Source: Candidatus Tayloriibacteriota bacterium
Lineage (GTDB): Bacteria > Patescibacteriota > Minisyncoccia > Phycocordibacterales > PALSA-1337
Direction: 5' to 3'
Length of the DNA stretch: 64,000 bases
NCBI GenBank assembly: GCA_037130865.1
Contig: JBAXSG010000001.1
Coordinates: 41,429 to 105,428, forward strand
The position numbers and the translations under genes were made by a program. Positions 1-11,937 of this stretch are shown here, one piece after another. Position 1 is the first letter of the stretch, and each line of letters begins with the position of its first letter. Under the pieces are notes generated by a model. It was not told the DNA's origin. It ran no database searches and saw only the letters and a program-made list of their open reading frames with translations.

Positions 1-236
1 GGGATGTACCTGCAGACAGCGCCAAAAATGGCGCAACAATCGGAAAATATTTCGAGGTCGTAAACAAAATTGCGCAAGCACAAAAGAAAGCTTTCAACCA
101 AGAAATGATACTAAGCAAGATTGTCGGTGAGGAAGTCCCCCATGCACATATCTGGGTCTATCCGAACAAAGAGACCAAAGGAGATAAAGAAGATTTTGAA
201 GGAAATAAAAAGAAGATTGTCGCAGCATTAATCTAA
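1..236 (+). CDS. HIT (histidine triad) family hydrolase, C-terminal fragment running off the window start
   Basis: Frame 3 reads ...MILSKIVGEEVPHAHIWVYPNKETKGDKEDFEGNKKKIVAALI*. The HxHxHxx histidine-triad motif is present. Stop TAA at 234-236. Confidence 0.55.
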   Translation, partial: DVPADSAKNGATIGKYFEVVNKIAQAQKKAFNQEMILSKIVGEEVPHAHIWVYPNKETKGDKEDFEGNKKKIVAALI

Positions 237-249
237 AGACCAAGAAAAT

Positions 250-1386
250 CTATAGATTCAATGCGTCTATACCTGGCAATGTTCCATTAGTAAGAAAATC
301 TAACATAGCGCCACCGGCGGTAGATATGAAAGTGAATTTATCTTCGAGCTTGAGAGTCGCTATAGCTGCCAATGTATCACCACCACCAACTATTGAAGTG
401 ATCTTTCCTGCGGCGCCAGCGACATCAAAACGAGCTGCAATCGCCTTTGCCACTTCTTGAGTCGCTTCACAATAACCACCTTCATATAAGCCGAGTGGTC
501 CATTCCAAAGAATGAAACTTGCCGCATCAATCTTCGCTTTCAAGAGCTCTAGTGTCTTCGGACCAGCATCCATAATTTTGTCAGTATTTATGAGACAGTC
601 CACAGGTCTAGTCTCGCGATTCTCAATAACCACATCTTCCGGAAGCATGAGCACTGGATTGGAAAAATATTTCGAAAGATCAAACTCACCAACAGAGACT
701 AGGGATTTTCCGACTTCGTAGCCTTTGCCTTTGAAAAAATCATGAGCCAGAGCACCTCCAACAAACACAGTATCAGCCAGACGAATAAATCTTTCTAGTA
801 GAGGAAGTTTCGTCTCAAACTTGGCACCACCGAGTATAAAGAGGAATGGATGCATGGCATGAAATGCCTGCGAGAGATGCTCGATCTCATTTTGGAGTTG
901 CAAACCGGCATAGCTCGGCAGAAGCTTCGGCACACCAACGATCGAGGCGTGCTCACGATGACAGACTGAGAAAGCATCATTTACAAAAAAATCTCCAAGT
1001 GAAGCCAATTCCTTAGCAAATTGCTGGTCATTGGTCTTCTCACCGTCGAATTGACGAAGGTTTTCCAAGAGAATGCACGAGCCGGCTGACATCTTCGCAA
1101 TCTCGTCAGTGGCATTGCGGATATTTTTCACAAAAGTTGTCGAAACTCCAAGATTCTCCAGCACACCAACAACCGGTTCCAAGGTCGCCTTTTCACCTTC
1201 CTTCACTTCGAGATGGCTTATCAAAACCACCTTCGCGCCTTTCGCACGCAAAAAGTTTATCGTTGGCAAGGCCATACGGATGCGATAATCGTTAACCACT
1301 TTGCCTTTGATGATCGGCACATTGAAATCCACACGCACAAGTGCGCGAACATCTTTCAAGTATTCGATATCGGAGAGAGTTTTCAT
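250..1386 (-). CDS. pgk: phosphoglycerate kinase
   Basis: 378-aa translation from MKTLSDIEYLKDVRALVRVDFNVPI... with PGK N-terminal substrate-binding and C-terminal nucleotide-binding hallmarks (GGGA/GGGD region). The ATG at 1386 is preferred over the upstream ORF start at 1446. Confidence 0.92.
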   Translation of the reverse strand: MKTLSDIEYLKDVRALVRVDFNVPIIKGKVVNDYRIRMALPTINFLRAKGAKVVLISHLEVKEGEKATLEPVVGVLENLGVSTTFVKNIRNATDEIAKMSAGSCILLENLRQFDGEKTNDQQFAKELASLGDFFVNDAFSVCHREHASIVGVPKLLPSYAGLQLQNEIEHLSQAFHAMHPFLFILGGAKFETKLPLLERFIRLADTVFVGGALAHDFFKGKGYEVGKSLVSVGEFDLSKYFSNPVLMLPEDVVIENRETRPVDCLINTDKIMDAGPKTLELLKAKIDAASFILWNGPLGLYEGGYCEATQEVAKAIAARFDVAGAAGKITSIVGGGDTLAAIATLKLEDKFTFISTAGGAMLDFLTNGTLPGIDALNL

Positions 1387-1509
1387 GAATGCACCATAAG
1401 ACTGGCTTGTTTCAAGTATAACATTAAAAACGAAAGAGCCGCGCACAGTTTTTTTGTTTCTGTGCGCGGTCTTGAATGTCAGCGGCTCATTCCATGCCAG
1501 GTGAATAAA

Positions 1510-2148
1510 TCACCGCCGTGCTTTTACGGGTTTTACGGATTCTGCTAGATAAGCCTGAACCATTAAAGCAAAACCACGCTCAATGACGAACTTGTAGCCG
1601 GGGCGATCGTAGGACGCATCTACCCACCGACCACCATCGGCACAGCCAACACGGAGAAAGAACGGGTTGCCTCTGGAATCCTTGACTGAGTCACACATGA
1701 CAACAATCCAATCCAGACCCATCTCCTTAAAGTCCTCATCCGAGAGCGTCTCACGGATTTGGAACAATATTTCAATGTTCGTCTCCAGTGCTTTTCCATA
1801 CTTCAGTCCGCGCTTGTCACCTTCGGCTTGAATGTTCTTGAAGGTGCGGTTACCGTCTTCGAACAGCACCCCTTTCAGCACCGCGATTTCGCGGATGACA
1901 CCAGTCGTCGGCGGCATAACCAGCTTACTGAAAACTTTAGTGGCTGATTTGCTAAAGCGGAAACCCTGATCCATAAGACGCTCTTTCCACTCTGGATATG
2001 TTGTACCGTTAGTGGCAGGAAGTTGGATATAAATTACACCATCAACTTCACGCCAACGCTTTACATGCTCTTTTGCAGCCATGATGATGGCCTTTCTCCG
2101 ACCAGTGGTCGGGATTGTCCTTATACATACGTGATAAGGATTGTTCAA
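1510..2148 (-). CDS. hypothetical protein on an elevated-GC segment, upstream neighbour of the DGR
   Basis: 212-aa ORF with no recognisable motifs. Local GC is visibly higher than the flanking pgk. Start is uncertain (an alternative Met at about 2082). Confidence 0.4.
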   Translation of the reverse strand: MNNPYHVCIRTIPTTGRRKAIIMAAKEHVKRWREVDGVIYIQLPATNGTTYPEWKERLMDQGFRFSKSATKVFSKLVMPPTTGVIREIAVLKGVLFEDGNRTFKNIQAEGDKRGLKYGKALETNIEILFQIRETLSDEDFKEMGLDWIVVMCDSVKDSRGNPFFLRVGCADGGRWVDASYDRPGYKFVIERGFALMVQAYLAESVKPVKARR

Positions 2149-2190
2149 TGTTCTTTACTGTCAATGGTATAGACCTTTTATGACTATCTG

Positions 2191-3273
2191 TCAATGACAT
2201 GAATTCGTCCACAACATTTGAGACTTTCCTGGTAATTGATTATATAACCTTATTTGTTGGCCTAGTTTATAACTATTTCCATGCGAAAGCATACCTAGAT
2301 AAGAGTTAAGCGTGGCCTCATATTTTTCGCTCTTTTCACTATCACCTTCACTATCTATAACTGCCTTTTTAGCCAACAAGTTTCTAAACATCCTCTTCTT
2401 GGTGGTTGTGCGTAAGACGCGATATTTAGGAAAATGAACCCAGCCAAGAAAATCTATACCGGAAGAAACAGTCTCTATCGATACTTTATCGGGATGAAGA
2501 TCCAGTCGCAATTCGCTCTGCAAAAAATCGCGAACTTTCGGGAGAAGACCGGCCAAAACACCTCGGTCATCATGCATAACCAAAAAATCATCGGCGTAGC
2601 GGATGTAATATCTCTGTTTCAGTTCATGTTTAATAAATTGATCCAATTCGTTTAAGTAAATATTTACCAGAAGTTGCGATGTAAGATTCCCAAGTGGCAG
2701 ACCTTTACCAAAACCGCCGGCACCACCAACAGCACCAACGACCTTACCACTAGAAAAACTGGAGATTATTTTCCAAAGCAACCCGAGAGTCGCATCATCC
2801 ACGGTATGCCTTCGTAAAACCCTCATCAAAACTTCATGATCAATAGAAGCGAAGCACTTGCGCACATCACATTTCAAGACCCAACAAGTTCGCCTGTGAT
2901 TTTTCGAAACTTTGCGTGCAAATTGTCTGAAACGATTTAGTGCTTTGTGAGTTCCTTTGAAATCTCTGCATGAATAAGAGTCAAAGATGAATCTCTTATC
3001 AAAAATCGGATACAAAATTCTGTATATAGAGTGATGCAATAATCTGTCACGAACAGTGGCTTTATGTATTATCCTAGTCTTAGGATCATTTATGATAAAA
3101 CTTTCATATAATCCGTGCGCATAGTTGCCATATAACAAATCTCTATATAAATCCGATATATTGCTAGACAGCTTTATTGTAAATTCAGCCACATCGTCTT
3201 TGCGGTTTTTGTCCACCACAAATTCCCGCCAGGCCTTGCATAAATTTTGAAAAGATATAATATCCTCGTACAT
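2191..3273 (-). CDS. diversity-generating retroelement (DGR) reverse transcriptase
   Basis: 360 aa. RT motifs are present: IINDPKTRIIHKATVRDRLLHHSIY (motifs 1/2), GLPLGNLTSQLLVNIYLNELD (motif 4 with the DGR-specific xGNLTSQ signature in place of group-II QGxxxSP) and YIRYADDFLVM (YADD catalytic motif 5). Size and N-terminus (ISFQNLCKAWREF) are typical of DGR RTs. Confidence 0.9.
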   Translation of the reverse strand: MYEDIISFQNLCKAWREFVVDKNRKDDVAEFTIKLSSNISDLYRDLLYGNYAHGLYESFIINDPKTRIIHKATVRDRLLHHSIYRILYPIFDKRFIFDSYSCRDFKGTHKALNRFRQFARKVSKNHRRTCWVLKCDVRKCFASIDHEVLMRVLRRHTVDDATLGLLWKIISSFSSGKVVGAVGGAGGFGKGLPLGNLTSQLLVNIYLNELDQFIKHELKQRYYIRYADDFLVMHDDRGVLAGLLPKVRDFLQSELRLDLHPDKVSIETVSSGIDFLGWVHFPKYRVLRTTTKKRMFRNLLAKKAVIDSEGDSEKSEKYEATLNSYLGMLSHGNSYKLGQQIRLYNQLPGKSQMLWTNSCH

Positions 3274-3332
3274 ATGAATTTAACTCAAAATCAAAATCTT
3301 TCTCATAGTACCCCCCCCGCAAAACGCCACAA

Positions 3333-3698
3333 GTGCTTTTGAAAGAGAAAGTGGTATACCGATCGTGGATATCGCTTCATAGGAATTTTCCGCGAATAGA
3401 AAGATTGGGTATTGGCCAAAAGATAGAGGCCTCTTTTCTGGATATTCTCGAATATACTTTCGTAGCAATGTATCTGGCATCTGACCAGAAAATTCTGATG
3501 CTCAGTAAAACCATAGCCAAACTAGATAAATTGAAATTTTTCATGCAAATAGCGTGGGAAAATAAACTCATACCAGAAGAAAAATATGCCCAGATATCGC
3601 TGGATCTTGAAGAGATTGGCCGCCAACTCGGCGGTTGGAGAAAGGGGTTGCAAACATCCGACCCAACGAAAACTCCCACCACAGGACAAGCCGCGTAG
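3333..3698 (+). CDS. avd: DGR accessory variability determinant (Avd-like four-helix bundle, 23S rRNA-IVS protein family)
   Basis: 121 aa from a GTG start. FPRIERLGIGQKIEASFLDILEYTFVA ... LEEIGRQLGGWRKGLQ aligns along its length with Bordetella phage bAvd (IPRKHGVAREMFLKCLLGQVELFIVA ... IAEVGRILGSWIARVNRKGQ). It lies between the RT and the TR but on the opposite strand. Confidence 0.72.
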   Translation: MLLKEKVVYRSWISLHRNFPRIERLGIGQKIEASFLDILEYTFVAMYLASDQKILMLSKTIAKLDKLKFFMQIAWENKLIPEEKYAQISLDLEEIGRQLGGWRKGLQTSDPTKTPTTGQAA

Positions 3699-3712
3699 TA
3701 GGAGAAATGGTA

Positions 3713-3830
3713 AGTTTCGGAACCACGATGCGATTCCTGTTCTCGGCGTTCCACACATTGTCGTTCAAGAAGCGGTTCACGTTCACCTTGGGAGCTCCAT
3801 CGGAGTCCAGATTCACGTTCGCGACGAAGA
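3713..3830 (-). repeat. DGR template repeat (TR)
   Basis: 118-nt segment homologous to 4163-4280. The conceptual translation VNLDSDGAPKVNVNRFLNDNVWNAENRNRIVVPKLT is rich in AAC/AAT codons. Every TR/VR difference falls on a minus-strand adenine of the TR. Confidence 0.85.
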
Positions 3831-4146
3831 AAATATGCAATAAACCATCCGTTACACCATCGGCCAAATCATGACCGATTGAATTTCATTTGGGACATAG
3901 AAGTCCGCCAGTTCATTGCACCAACTGACTATTTTTTGTTAATAGGAATACATCCACTCTCCTGCAAGACGTATCCGGCAGAATTCTCGAATGTATTTCT
4001 TCACAAGCGTGGCGCGGAAGCCTTGGCCGCCGCACATTCAGACTTGTGATGCTACTATAACAAAATCACCCCAACCTGTGGAGTGCCATCTTTTTCAGAC
4101 GGCACACCACAAGGGTCAGAGTGATTGATAGTCAGAGCGTCAAGCG

Positions 4147-4836
4147 CTAAGACTCGAGGGTCAGTTGCGGAACCACGATGCGACTCCTGCCCTCGGCGTA
4201 CCACACAATGCCGCACAAGAAGCGGTACACGTGCACCTTGGGAGCCCCATCGGAGTCCAGATCCACGCGCGCGACGAAGAGTTCACCATTGGCTTCGAAT
4301 AGGAAGAGCGTCCAGAAGTCTGTGCTGAGCCACTTGTGGTGGTTCTTCACAAACTGGATGATCTGAGGCTGTGGGAGGCACAGCTTTTTCGAATCCTCCG
4401 ACAAACTATCGAAGATTTTTTGATAGTTGCCGTTCTTGATGAGTTCATGAACAGCAACGTTCGTTTCCTTCGTCGGTTCGCTCTTCACATCGCAACCCCA
4501 GTTCTTGAAGTCGCAGTCGATGCCCCAGGTGAAAACTTTCTCTGCCCGAGCAATAGTCTCCTTGCCATCGGTTGGTTTGAGCGTGATGGTTTCCGCGCCC
4601 GAGATGAGCTTAAGGCAACCGCTCACGTTCTCGGTGATTTCTGCAAGCTTCTTCTTCACCGCTTCCATGACCACGGTTTTGAGTTCATTGCCGCGCTCCA
4701 CGAGTTTCTGAATGTTGTCACCGTTGATGACATCATTCTTTTCGAGGTCTTGGATCGCCTCCTCGGTGGCTTTACGAGCTGCCGATGTTGCGACTGTTAC
4801 GACTTGTTCTTTCTGACCAGATGTAATCGGTTTCAT
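4147..4836 (-). CDS. DGR target (variable) protein with a C-terminal VR-encoded ligand-binding segment
   Basis: 229 aa. The C-terminus ...FVARVDLDSDGAPKVHVYRFLCGIVWYAEGRSRIVVPQLTLES* is the diversified copy of the TR-encoded peptide (N->R/D/H/Y/C/I/Y/G/S, D->G, K->Q). There is no obvious N-terminal signal peptide. A ribosome-binding site AAAGGA lies 9 nt upstream of the ATG. Confidence 0.8.
   Translation of the reverse strand: MKPITSGQKEQVVTVATSAARKATEEAIQDLEKNDVINGDNIQKLVERGNELKTVVMEAVKKKLAEITENVSGCLKLISGAETITLKPTDGKETIARAEKVFTWGIDCDFKNWGCDVKSEPTKETNVAVHELIKNGNYQKIFDSLSEDSKKLCLPQPQIIQFVKNHHKWLSTDFWTLFLFEANGELFVARVDLDSDGAPKVHVYRFLCGIVWYAEGRSRIVVPQLTLES
4163..4280 (-). repeat. DGR variable repeat (VR) inside the 3-prime end of the target gene
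   Basis: Offset exactly 450 nt from the TR. There are 15 mismatches to the TR within 3731-3820 versus 4181-4270, all plus-strand T in the TR changed to C/A/G in the VR (adenine-specific on the coding strand). The 3-prime flank (4150-4170) is GC-rich and shows non-adenine mismatches to the TR (IMH versus IMH*-like). Confidence 0.85.
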
Positions 4837-5031
4837 GCCGTTATCATCCTTTCTTTATACGGCTTTCGGCCGGCCGTTGACTAACCTTCATTGGTTTCGC
4901 CACAGCAGACAGTTGCCATCGACATTAACCAAAATAGTTAACATCCTAGCCACTTTCTGCCATGGCGAAAATCGCATTTTATGTTCATTTCCGCAATATT
5001 CAAGGTGCTTTTACTACCCAATAGTATACAC

Positions 5032-5802
5032 CTAAATAGAGACTCTGTCAACCTCTTTTATAAGCTCCACAAATCCAGGAATATTTACACTTTCGCGGCC
5101 GACAAGAAGACCATCGACTTTTCCGATAGTGATAATGTCCGGCGCATTGCGGTATGTCACAGAACCACCATAGAGCACTGTAACTTTGAGACCCATATCG
5201 GCACCATAGAGATCAGCGAAAACTTTTTTAATGAAAAGCGAAGTCTCGTAAACATCTTCTGGCTTCATAGCTTCCGCGGCGCCGATAGCCCAGATTGGCT
5301 CATAAGCAACTATTATTGACTTGGCTGACTTCTTCAATATATCTCCACAACTGGCCTTGATCTGATCTTTCAGAAAACCTAGATACGCGCCGCTTTCATC
5401 GCGAACGGATTCTCCTATGCAAAGTATCGGCGTCAAACCTTGACCAAGTACCGCTTTCAAACGTGCCGCGACTGTTTCGTTGGTGTCGCCGCGCTTGCGC
5501 TGCTCCGAATGTCCAACGATGACATATTCAACTCCAATATCACGCAACATGTGCGCTCCAACTTCACCTGTATGTGGCCCACCTTCTTCTTGAGTAGAGA
5601 CCGTCTGCGCACCCATGTGAAAATGAGCAATCTTCTTGCGAGATGCGCAAGCTGTAATAAATGGCAATGGCGGACAGATCACGACTTCTGTATTGGCTAA
5701 GGCGGGTGCTGCGCGCTTGAATTTGTGCGAAAGTTTCTTGGCCTCAGCGAGCGTGGCTGGGTTCATTTTCCAGTTTCCGACTACTAGTTTTTTGTTAGTC
5801 AT
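5032..5802 (-). CDS. tpiA: triosephosphate isomerase
   Basis: MTNKKLVVGNWKMNPATLAEAKKL... has the canonical TIM N-terminus (GNWKMN) and catalytic residues. The ATG at 5802 is preferred over the ORF start at 5823. Confidence 0.92.
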   Translation of the reverse strand: MTNKKLVVGNWKMNPATLAEAKKLSHKFKRAAPALANTEVVICPPLPFITACASRKKIAHFHMGAQTVSTQEEGGPHTGEVGAHMLRDIGVEYVIVGHSEQRKRGDTNETVAARLKAVLGQGLTPILCIGESVRDESGAYLGFLKDQIKASCGDILKKSAKSIIVAYEPIWAIGAAEAMKPEDVYETSLFIKKVFADLYGADMGLKVTVLYGGSVTYRNAPDIITIGKVDGLLVGRESVNIPGFVELIKEVDRVSI

Positions 5803-5854
5803 TGGATAATTGTAACACAACAAAAATGTCCCGCCATTACGGCCATTGCTGCTA

Positions 5855-7174
5855 TTATCTCACCTCCTTCCATGAAATCATCTTATATTGATTGCCCTGA
5901 CTTCCTCCTTGTTTGATTATTGGGAAATATGGAGGTGGATTGCCAGCCAGATTCACATCATAAGCGATATTACGAGCTGTATAAGCTGTACCGTCTGTAT
6001 AAGTAAATCCAAATTTCTTATTTGTGGCTATAGAACCATTTAGCGTAAGTGTCGAACGATGAGAATAATCTATACCATCTACTCTACAAGCAGATGGATA
6101 GAAAAATCTACCGACGCGACCATTTTCTGCTATAAGAGCTCCATCTATATGCAAAGAATCAGCGCTGACTAAACCGATATTTATATTCTCCTTGGCAATA
6201 AGTCCAAGAGCTTCGGTGTTATCGTATTTTATGTACGACAAATCTGAATTGACTGTTATATTATTTGCAGCAATCGTAAGTCTTGAGCCGTCTATAGTGC
6301 CGTCGACCCAAACATCATCATTGAAAAATAGAAGACCTTGAACTGGTAAAGTATATGTGCCGAGAAAACTCTGTGAGTGAATACTCCAAGTACCCCAACC
6401 GGCTGTAGCACTGGAACATCCAGCAGGTGCTGCGACCAACTCTGTCACTGTATATAAGGTAAATGTATCATCTTGATTTAAGGCGATATGATATCCGTAT
6501 GCAGGACTTTCATCGTATTGGGATCTTGCATAATAAGTACCACTACTACTTGCGACCGTCTGAAGTCCTTGAAAATCAGCACCAAGCCCAGAAAAATCCA
6601 CCACTGTGACCGGCGCTTGCTTACCAGCATAGAAAACACCTGATCCATCTACTGCAGTGGCGCTCGAGATAATATTATTTGCGATTCCATTGAAGTGGAT
6701 GACTCCATTTGCCATGACTGGTCCAGAGGTTTCAGTATCGAATGAAAATATAAGACCATCATTTGAGACTATGGCGTATTTTGTAAATGTTGGAAGACCG
6801 AACACAGCTTCGATAGTGCGAGAGATCTTCGAACTATTCAAATCCACACTCCCTTTCGAACTAACAGATATCTTGGTCGAACCAACGGTTGTCGGAGCTA
6901 CTTCTAGTACATAATTTCCGAGAATATTACCGTCTTTATCGAAAAAATCTTGCTTATATGTGTGTGTTTGATTATCACTGGTAATATTGGCGATATTTCC
7001 TCTAAACGAACTGAGACCAGCCTCTGCAATCTCAAAAGCTTGCTCGCTCTTGACCGCCATCCTTGCATTTACGATCAAGGTCGCGCCCCAATTTACCAAA
7101 CCAATAACCATAGTCACCGCTACAGCAGCAAAAACCAAAACACTTACGAGTATATCTCCTCGAATTGTCATCAT
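5855..7174 (-). CDS. type IV pilus minor pilin / tip-associated protein, PilX-like (large)
   Basis: The N-terminus MMTIRGDILVSVLVFAAVAVTMVIGL is a hydrophobic prepilin-like helix, followed by AVKSEQAFEIAEAGL (PilX_N-like). It is the last gene of the pilB-pilC-pilin operon. Start is taken at the internal ATG-ATG at 7174 and is uncertain. Confidence 0.55.
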   Translation of the reverse strand: MMTIRGDILVSVLVFAAVAVTMVIGLVNWGATLIVNARMAVKSEQAFEIAEAGLSSFRGNIANITSDNQTHTYKQDFFDKDGNILGNYVLEVAPTTVGSTKISVSSKGSVDLNSSKISRTIEAVFGLPTFTKYAIVSNDGLIFSFDTETSGPVMANGVIHFNGIANNIISSATAVDGSGVFYAGKQAPVTVVDFSGLGADFQGLQTVASSSGTYYARSQYDESPAYGYHIALNQDDTFTLYTVTELVAAPAGCSSATAGWGTWSIHSQSFLGTYTLPVQGLLFFNDDVWVDGTIDGSRLTIAANNITVNSDLSYIKYDNTEALGLIAKENINIGLVSADSLHIDGALIAENGRVGRFFYPSACRVDGIDYSHRSTLTLNGSIATNKKFGFTYTDGTAYTARNIAYDVNLAGNPPPYFPIIKQGGSQGNQYKMISWKEVR

Positions 7175-11226: not shown

Positions 11227-11937
11227 TTAGTTTTTGCTGTTAGCGCTGCTAGCGACGGTTTTCTCCGGATTGTTTCGGAGATGTAGTATTCCACCGGGGA
11301 AACCACTCGTCCTAAGGACTTCCTGCAGGGGATAGTAGTCCACCTGAAGGCCCTTACCTTCTCTGCCGCTACGGCGATAGATCGTCACGATTGAGACTGG
11401 TGGACAATTGTGTTCGATTTGTCCATTCGTTACGAAGAAGTGGTGTTCTCCCTCATCGAAGTCTGCCAACTCCCCGCCCTTTTCGCTCTGACGATTCAAT
11501 CCCTGAAGACCTAACTCAATCTGAATCGGGCTGAATATCGCCTTAAGCTCTATAAGCTTTCCGGCGAACTTCATCAGAGCTTCCTCATAAGCTCGCCGAG
11601 AAAAGAGTTCAGACGATGCATCGAGACCCAACGCCAACGAGGCTTTGTACAGCAGATCTGGATCTTCGGCCTTGTTGACCATCTGACAAGTTGTCCAGAG
11701 GCCATCACCCGACGGCGGCACTATCTTGGCCATACCAGAAAAGAATTCCTGGTCGATCCTGAACATGGCTTGCTTCGCTGTGTTTTTGCTACAGAAGCAT
11801 GCCTCCGAGACTATAGATGGACATTGTTGAACCTGGATACCGGTCTCTATAAATTTCACCGGACCCGAACAACTCACTGTTGGTTGATTAGTCTGTTTAA
11901 CTTGAGCGACCATTTTTCCTCCTCGTGGTATTGCCAC
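11227..11937 (-). CDS. hypothetical Cys-containing protein on an elevated-GC segment
   Basis: 236-aa ORF with C-x-C and HNCPP motifs and no family recognised. It is co-oriented with, and downstream of, the LeuD-like gene. Confidence 0.35.
   Translation of the reverse strand: MAIPRGGKMVAQVKQTNQPTVSCSGPVKFIETGIQVQQCPSIVSEACFCSKNTAKQAMFRIDQEFFSGMAKIVPPSGDGLWTTCQMVNKAEDPDLLYKASLALGLDASSELFSRRAYEEALMKFAGKLIELKAIFSPIQIELGLQGLNRQSEKGGELADFDEGEHHFFVTNGQIEHNCPPVSIVTIYRRSGREGKGLQVDYYPLQEVLRTSGFPGGILHLRNNPEKTVASSANSKN

Follow-up and report, generated by a model that had tools for sequence, protein, structure and literature searches.

Diversity-generating retroelements (DGRs) are abundant in Patescibacteria, but both their mode of spread and the roles of their small targets are poorly understood. 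Here, we analyse a stretch of 64,000 nucleotides from the genome of a Candidatus Tayloriibacteriota bacterium (GCA_037130865.1, contig JBAXSG010000001.1, positions 41,429 to 105,428 of the forward strand; this whole stretch is called the window), in which a gap separates the glycolytic genes tpiA (triosephosphate isomerase) and pgk (phosphoglycerate kinase). The gap holds a complete DGR: a target gene with its variable repeat (VR), a template repeat (TR), the accessory variability determinant gene avd, and a reverse transcriptase (RT) gene. Loci of relatives that we compared with the window genome carry L-numbers.

Relationship to described retroelements

Among DGRs of the candidate phyla radiation (CPR), 90% are reported to have the B3 architecture, TR-(avd)-RT (Wu et al. 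2018, PMC5758913), and DGR clade 2 is described as cellular and restricted to Patescibacteria (Roux et al. 2021, PMC8144416). DGRs are also frequently borne by phages or plasmids (PMC5758913). The window element resembles the CPR B3/clade 2 systems in being chromosomal and cellular, with a single adjacent target and adenine-specific mutagenesis. Its target is likewise small, lacks a recognisable Pfam or transmembrane domain and carries the VR at the C-terminus, and after the target come the TR, an avd on the reverse strand and the RT; in the core mechanism, we see no difference. Particular to the window element are its site at the tpiA-pgk junction, the orphan member of another target family 3′ of the RT, and the existence of sister genomes that record a swap of the target/TR module and a deletion of TR plus avd.

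The prototype DGR of Bordetella phage BPP-1 (mtd-avd-TR-brt) shares with it an RT bearing the I/LGxxxSQ motif, an Avd four-helix-bundle protein, and TR/VR repeats of ~125 nt that differ by A-to-N changes, the VR lying at the 3′ end of the gene for a protein of the C-type lectin (CLec) fold. Further possible points of likeness are non-A differences at the 3′ end of the repeats, resembling those between the initiation of mutagenic homing sequence (IMH) and IMH*, and a hairpin after the VR. The window element differs, however, in having no phage carrier, an avd on the opposite strand after the TR, and a target that is no tail fibre, and its post-VR hairpin, which is short and not clearly GC-rich, is a candidate equivalent only. 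TvpA of Treponema denticola and the archaeal AvpA are comparable as CLec-fold DGR variable proteins. The window element is, in sum, an ordinary CPR-clade DGR of the TR-(avd)-RT type in an unusually well-documented, recombination-prone location.

A complete DGR between tpiA and pgk

Both flanking genes lie on the minus strand, tpiA (5032-5802; Pfam TIM 4.7e-67, domain call on 5032-5823) upstream of the insert and pgk (250-1386; Pfam PGK 5e-103, domain call on 250-1446) downstream. The gap measures 3,645 nt from the pgk ATG (1386) to the tpiA stop (5032), and the coding order on the minus strand is tpiA, a 229-aa target with the VR, the TR, avd (itself on the plus strand), the RT, an open reading frame (ORF) of 190 aa, and pgk. 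Since the same sequence was assembled, identical, in five independent samples, this arrangement is no chimera or assembly artefact. Homologues of pgk come from Patescibacteria/Paceibacteria, and the tpiA product is 84% identical in amino acids to those of relatives with an empty junction and 93% identical to those of L088 and L089.

The target gene (4147-4836, minus strand) encodes an N-terminal helical segment followed by a C-type-lectin-like domain. Its 125-nt VR (4156-4280, minus strand) spans codons 186-227 of 229 and pairs with a 125-nt TR (3706-3830, minus strand) that contains 32 adenines and nine AAY codons. Over their 125 nt, the two repeats differ at 18 positions. Adenines of the TR account for 16 of these; the remaining pair, T>G and T>C at non-A positions, lies within the last 8 nt at the extreme 3′ end, as would be expected between IMH and IMH*. 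The avd gene (3333-3698, plus strand; 121 aa) matches Pfam bAvd above the gathering score (1.4e-12) and PHROG 3206, ‘Avd protein of DGR’ (5e-18). The same reverse orientation of avd is found in L012, L023, L032, L042 and L080 as well as at 12 metagenome loci. The RT (2191-3273, minus strand; 360 aa) matches RVT_1 (3e-27) and PHROG 1423 (9e-109) and carries the motifs LGNLTSQ (aa 194-200) and YADD (aa 226). Elsewhere in the window there is no further TR copy, no second TR or RT, and no other member of these families.

By analogy with known DGRs, the TR would be transcribed on the minus strand, in antisense to avd and probably jointly with the RT gene; this RNA would be copied into cDNA by RT and Avd, with misincorporation opposite adenines, and the cDNA would overwrite the VR at the 3′ end of the gene for the CLec-fold target. 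The nine AAY codons alone could give rise to ~15^9 = 4×10^10 protein variants. The VRs of the window genome and L089 differ at 17 positions, of which 15 are at TR adenines, with adenines making up only 26% of TR positions, and this bias points to mutagenic retrohoming since these alleles separated. Both the 229-aa target and the 190-aa ORF product have a CLec/FGE-like fold, and the target displays its VR on the C-terminal surface. A transcription pattern of the kind outlined, current activity of the element, and a ligand-binding role for both proteins are predicted. Scans against Pfam, PHROG and PADLOC assigned neither CLec protein to a family, and PDB sequence searches with both target-family profiles returned nothing meaningful. 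A match of the target to HMD_N was sub-threshold (17.6 bits against a cut-off of 27) and was not used.

Empty and occupied junctions among relatives

A scan with one genome per species yielded 80 Paceibacteria pgk loci, 77 of them including tpiA. Both genes are present at 79 loci in total, which include the 77 species representatives; tpiA always precedes pgk on one strand, and the gap is shorter than 150 nt in 71 of the 77 representatives. Tight junctions are also found in the nearest lineages without the element, whose PGK proteins are 79, 78, 78, 77 and 69% identical to that of the window genome (L006, L007, L172 and two more). With these empty-junction relatives the window genome has a backbone in common: T2SSE, T2SSF, pilins, a 450-aa protein, TIM, PGK, HIT, RecJ, RNaseH, ComEC and SOD. 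As the junction is tight in nearly all relatives, the 3.6 kb of the window genome is an insert, and an empty site in related genomes, one mark of a genomic island, is present. The sequence-only reading had taken pgk and tpiA for co-oriented, normally adjacent genes, set apart here by 3.6 kb in which a whole DGR had entered a conserved gene pair. The junction survey, the measured gap and the components identified bear it out in all of this, the usual order being tpiA then pgk.

In some relatives, the junction is occupied as well. L088 (PGK 91% identical) carries TIM, a 232-aa target, a TR, a reverse avd, an RT, a homologue of the 190-aa ORF, and PGK. Its avd, RT and ORF are 92-99% identical to those of the window genome at the nucleotide level, with the RT at 93%, whereas the target gene and TR cannot be aligned. 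L088 possesses its own TR/VR pair, with 19 of 22 mismatches at adenines, and the breakpoints between the two loci lie just after the hairpin in the 5′ untranslated region (UTR) of the target gene (~4895) and near the 3′ end of the TR/avd (~3650-3700). In this comparison, target and template appear to have been exchanged as one module, separately from the enzyme genes.

The backbone of L089-L091 is 96-99% identical to that of L088. Here, the target belongs to the 229-aa family of the window genome (78% aa identity), the RT is 82% identical in amino acids to that of the window genome, and the 190-aa ORF is absent. These loci are also without TR and avd, the 97-100% similarity to the window genome breaking off precisely at the 5′ edge of the TR; a TR in L089 suggested by a local alignment proved spurious, as direct alignment shows both TR and avd to be absent. 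The L089 RT is intact, with a 4-nt overlap between its stop and the start of pgk. The L089 DGR (L089:8690-9131; likewise in L090 and L091) looks like one that is disabled or that relies on a remote TR. Between the window genome and L089, identity is 97-100% over the target 5′ UTR with the first 180 nt of the gene and over the 300 nt that separate VR from TR, and ~71% over the middle of the target (4296-4655, codons ~61-180, outside the VR). This mid-gene divergence indicates a probable intragenic mosaicism that is independent of DGR mutagenesis. At the L070 junction, only an orphan member of the 229-aa family is left (hidden Markov model E-value 2.7e-52). Close relatives hence provide a series comprising empty junctions, a full cassette, a swapped target/TR on a near-identical avd-RT core, and loss of TR plus avd.

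L088 also departs from the window genome and L089 in gene content: an additional gene of 325 aa separates its pgk from HIT, and it lacks their dehydroquinase gene (L088:12011-12988, L002:15802-16554).

A probable recombination mosaic at the junction

Divergence along the locus is uneven. By protein identity, the flanking pilus genes and RNaseH place the window genome, L088/L089, L006 and L007 at roughly equal distances from one another. In TIM, PGK, HIT and RecJ, the window genome and L088/L089 are 90-93% identical, all other pairs reaching 66-84%, and ComEC of the window genome is nearer to L006/L007 (72%) than to L088 (61%). Synonymous divergence (dS) between the window genome and L088 falls into corresponding tiers: 1.45-1.90 for T2SSE/F, 0.55-0.77 for TIM, PGK, HIT and RecJ, 0.38 for avd, 0.25 for the RT, and 0.13 for the 190-aa ORF. 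The target+TR module, the avd-RT-ORF core and the tpiA-recJ block are each of a different divergence age, and the comparison shows the housekeeping flanks apparently travelling with the element.

The dS tiers and the incongruent protein identities together suggest spread by repeated homologous recombination. We infer that the element most likely spread in this way between related lineages, with conserved glycolytic and repair genes serving as recombination arms. The gap is filled by a chromosomal, Patescibacteria-type B3 DGR that interrupts an otherwise tight tpiA-pgk junction, and the locus would be a recombination mosaic common to a few lineages, within which the element would spread via its flanking genes and not by any self-encoded mobility.

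A second target family downstream of the RT

The 190-aa ORF (1510-2082, minus strand; longest ORF to 2148) is a CLec-fold member of a second DGR-target family and has no cognate TR. A word-indexed search had returned one match, the L088 orthologue, which made the ORF appear to be an ORFan; an exhaustive phmmer search overturned this with 878 cluster representatives, 393 of them below 1e-10. Apparent ORFans among fast-evolving CPR proteins can be an artefact of word seeding.

Scanning with a 12-sequence alignment of the family gave 80 metagenome loci, 34 of them at least 6 kb long. At 12 of these 34, three elements come within 0.4-0.9 kb after the family member: a second copy of its 3′ end, an avd on the reverse strand, and an RT that is 47-56% identical to the window RT. 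The TR/VR mismatches fall at adenines in 15 of 15 cases at L134, 15 of 16 at L136, 11 of 13 at L100, and 16 of 19 at L126. These 3′-end repeats, differing nearly only at adenines, identify the family as one of DGR targets, so that some 880 cluster representatives annotated as ‘hypothetical’ can now be labelled CLec-fold DGR targets. The RTs that accompany the family elsewhere fall in a different part of a neighbour-joining tree from the window RT, with weak support.

In the window genome, the ORF is intact and, with a dN/dS of 0.22 against L088, under purifying selection. We read it as an orphan or retired target gene rather than an accessory gene. It was also considered as a second target of the window TR and rejected, as the TR has no similarity to it and no matching repeat occurs in the 64 kb. 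Paralogy among the GC-rich ORFs of the window (the 229-aa target, the 190-aa ORF and an ORF at 11227-11937) was likewise considered, and BLASTP among them found nothing.

Base composition of the insert

Two parts of the insert are GC-rich. The GC content of 1510-2148 is 0.488, at the 98th percentile among segments of the same length across the 64 kb, and that of 3850-4850 is 0.506, in the 99.4th percentile and including the GC maximum of the whole window. The target gene itself has a GC content of 0.522 and, with a third-position GC (GC3) of 0.674, ranks first of 64 ORFs (z = +4); the 190-aa ORF ranks fourth (GC3 0.512). In contrast, avd (0.426) lies at the 57th percentile and the RT (0.387, GC3 0.366) at the 9th. 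Both flanking genes are above the window mean of 0.42 (tpiA 0.473, pgk 0.453). Composition is therefore not uniformly atypical across the insert, as would be expected of a genomic island.

The same split recurs in other hosts. The targets of two sister genomes have a GC3 of 0.64-0.66, and at 23 of 23 metagenome loci with a homologue of the 190-aa ORF, the homologue is GC-richer than the rest of the locus, by 15 points on average and with GC3 up to 0.85. The adjacent DGR RT shows the opposite, a GC content below that of the remaining locus, in 11 of 11 cases (mean -4.5 points). Because GC-rich targets and GC-poor RTs are found together across unrelated loci, high GC is a property of the target families and no marker of recent import. 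GC-based inference of horizontal transfer is misleading in these DGRs, as high GC marks the target genes in every host examined. Candidate causes of the split are GC-biased gene conversion (gBGC), a shared gene pool, or codon constraints.

The proposal of horizontal acquisition in the sequence-only reading is thus partly supported. Elevated GC in places was correctly seen, and GC3 does single out the target and the 190-aa ORF, but neither measure characterises the insert as an island, given the composition of RT and avd, and GC loses its value as evidence of acquisition. Synteny agrees with an insertion insofar as most relatives have the two genes adjacent, and speaks against a private acquisition insofar as some carry a DGR at the junction too. 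Since these include L088, L089-L091 and L012, the insertion is no single, recent and private acquisition but a shared and repeatedly remodelled one. Nor are pgk and tpiA inert native flanks, the tpiA-pgk-HIT-recJ block showing a dS of 0.55-0.77 to one lineage against 1.5-1.9 around it, and the ‘hypothetical’ ORF at 1510-2148 turned out to be a DGR-target family member, not a random passenger.

A further GC outlier in the window is the ORF at 11227-11937 (minus strand, 236 aa), which lies upstream of T2SSE and has no Pfam domain (GC 0.495, GC3 0.52). A homologue in L007 is 33% identical.

Alternative explanations

Taken as a whole, the account of a CPR B3 DGR with an orphan target, in a mosaic locus and spread by homologous recombination, is in our judgement likely to be correct. 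Several points weigh against it. The ‘background’ divergence was determined from ~6 kb on each side (~20 kb of sister genomes compared), so the background dS level is not secure, and the pilus and ComEC genes could themselves be recombinant or fast-evolving parts. All five assemblies carrying the window sequence have one identical VR, which, as assemblies give consensus only, is uninformative on ongoing diversification. The neighbour-joining RT tree consists of long, unsupported branches, and hhalign of the two target families gave a probability of 0.8% with only the C-terminal 43 columns aligned; we relate these families at the fold level only and claim no common ancestry. Finally, the same junction is occupied in L012, whose PGK is 59% identical, by a DGR with yet a different target, a TR, a reverse avd and an RT. 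Of the 21 mismatches in this TR/VR pair, 17 are at adenines, and the RT overlaps the pgk start in both L012 and L089. The L012 locus and these overlaps fit an old vertical insertion with many losses, namely a single entry at tpiA-pgk in one ancestor of these Paceibacteria followed by vertical inheritance, precise loss in most descendants, and in-situ divergence. Such a history would also agree with the long co-residence suggested by the RT stop overlapping the pgk start, with the orphan 229-aa family member kept at the L070 junction, and with an RT identity between the window genome and L012 (56%) close to that of PGK (58.5%). However, all RTs of the group are 47-57% identical to the window RT, so that the value for L012 is not specifically close, and many independent clean losses would be needed, given the tight junctions in 71 of 77 representatives and in five lineages at 69-79% PGK identity. 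Moreover, the DGR core is younger than its flanks between the window genome and L088 (dS 0.13-0.38 vs 0.55-0.77 vs at least 1.5), and target and TR of these two are unalignable despite RTs that are 93% identical. We therefore regard an ancient insertion as unlikely and favour repeated homologous recombination.

It is highly improbable that the insert is a self-mobile genomic island, prophage or integrative element, or a remnant of one, whose site-specific integration carried the DGR in. Apart from the frequent carriage of DGRs by phages or plasmids cited above and the atypical GC of parts of the insert, this idea draws on two similar 9-nt boxes at the insert ends, GTGTATACT after the tpiA stop (5023-5031, minus strand) and TGTTATACT upstream of pgk (1415-1423, minus strand), where empty junctions have one box only, GTGCTATACT. 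The pair may stem from duplication of an insertion site or represent two distinct promoters; both boxes match the extended -10 promoter consensus, which makes a target-site duplication unnecessary, and no other flanking repeat recurs. In Pfam and PHROG scans of the main ORFs of the insert, integrases, transposases and recombinases were all absent, RT and Avd were the only phage-family hits, and there is no tRNA gene within 17 kb (the nearest is at 22.8 kb). In addition, the GC content is heterogeneous in a pattern intrinsic to the gene families, and CPR clade DGRs are reported as cellular (PMC8144416). Very unlikely, too, is a role of the 190-aa ORF as a functional part of the DGR, whether as an accessory factor or as a second diversified target. 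Its position directly downstream of the RT on the same strand and its conservation with the RT in L088 (93% aa, at the lowest dS of the locus, 0.13) would speak for such a role, but the TR is no more similar to the 3′ end of the ORF than to shuffled sequence (local score 17 vs shuffles 20 ± 2.9), a matching TR is missing from the rest of the 64 kb, and the VR-equivalent stretch is 98% identical between the window genome and L088. Furthermore, the DGRs that L089 and L012 carry at this junction lack the ORF, and RTs found beside the family elsewhere belong, as described, to a different part of the RT tree.

The pilus-tpiA-pgk neighbourhood

DGR parts are found near pilus-tpiA-pgk at several loci (L007, L012, L016, L023, L032, L042 and L080; L114 and L170; and L070). 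A DGR RT lies within 10 kb of pgk at 6 of the 80 species-representative loci, plus L007, at sites that vary from inside the pilus cluster to the junction or after pgk. Two of the 12 DGR loci found via the 190-aa family have tpiA/pgk within 6 kb.

The neighbourhood may be a DGR hotspot, or it may have a functional link with type IV pili or competence. Tentatively, and with more doubt than confidence, we suggest that the type-IV-pilus/tpiA-pgk region is a recombination hotspot at which DGR cassettes are exchanged between species by transformation and flank recombination, the GC content of the targets marking a shared pool or gBGC. The cassettes in question may be target+TR modules, avd-RT cores and orphan CLec genes. 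If true, it would describe a way for a non-autonomous retroelement to move, and for its targets to be reshuffled with it, among ultra-small bacteria.

Promoters, hairpins and terminators

Several candidate regulatory features, all on the minus strand, accompany the element. A consensus scan found a sigma-70-like promoter, TTGACA-17-TATACT (5023-5051; 11 of 12 matches), which overlaps the tpiA stop, is kept in L088 and L089 and is a candidate promoter for the DGR target gene. Downstream of it, in the tpiA-target spacer that forms the target 5′ UTR, RNA folding predicts a long, imperfect hairpin of 77 nt (4895-4971). The fold of 4837-5031 has -60 kcal/mol (z = -3.8; none of 200 shuffles equally stable), and the hairpin is ~90% conserved in L088/L089, with the L088 target-module breakpoint just 3′ of it. 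Possible roles for the hairpin are termination of tpiA transcription, regulation, or recombination; an Rfam scan of 1-7000, this hairpin included, returned zero RNA families at E <= 1.

Directly 3′ of the VR, a small hairpin of mixed AT/GC content spans the target stop codon (4130-4155; DNA fold) and is a candidate DGR target-recognition hairpin. IMH-type hairpins or repeats after the VR are present in only 34% of DGRs (Wu et al., PMC5758913). It is followed by a long hairpin with a T-run (4065-4125; z = -4.5 for 4040-4175) that is 97-100% identical in L089 and is probably the intrinsic terminator of the target gene. At the other end of the insert, a GC-rich hairpin with a T-run (1439-1469), read from the sequence 3′ of the 190-aa ORF and conserved in L088, is the probable terminator of that ORF.

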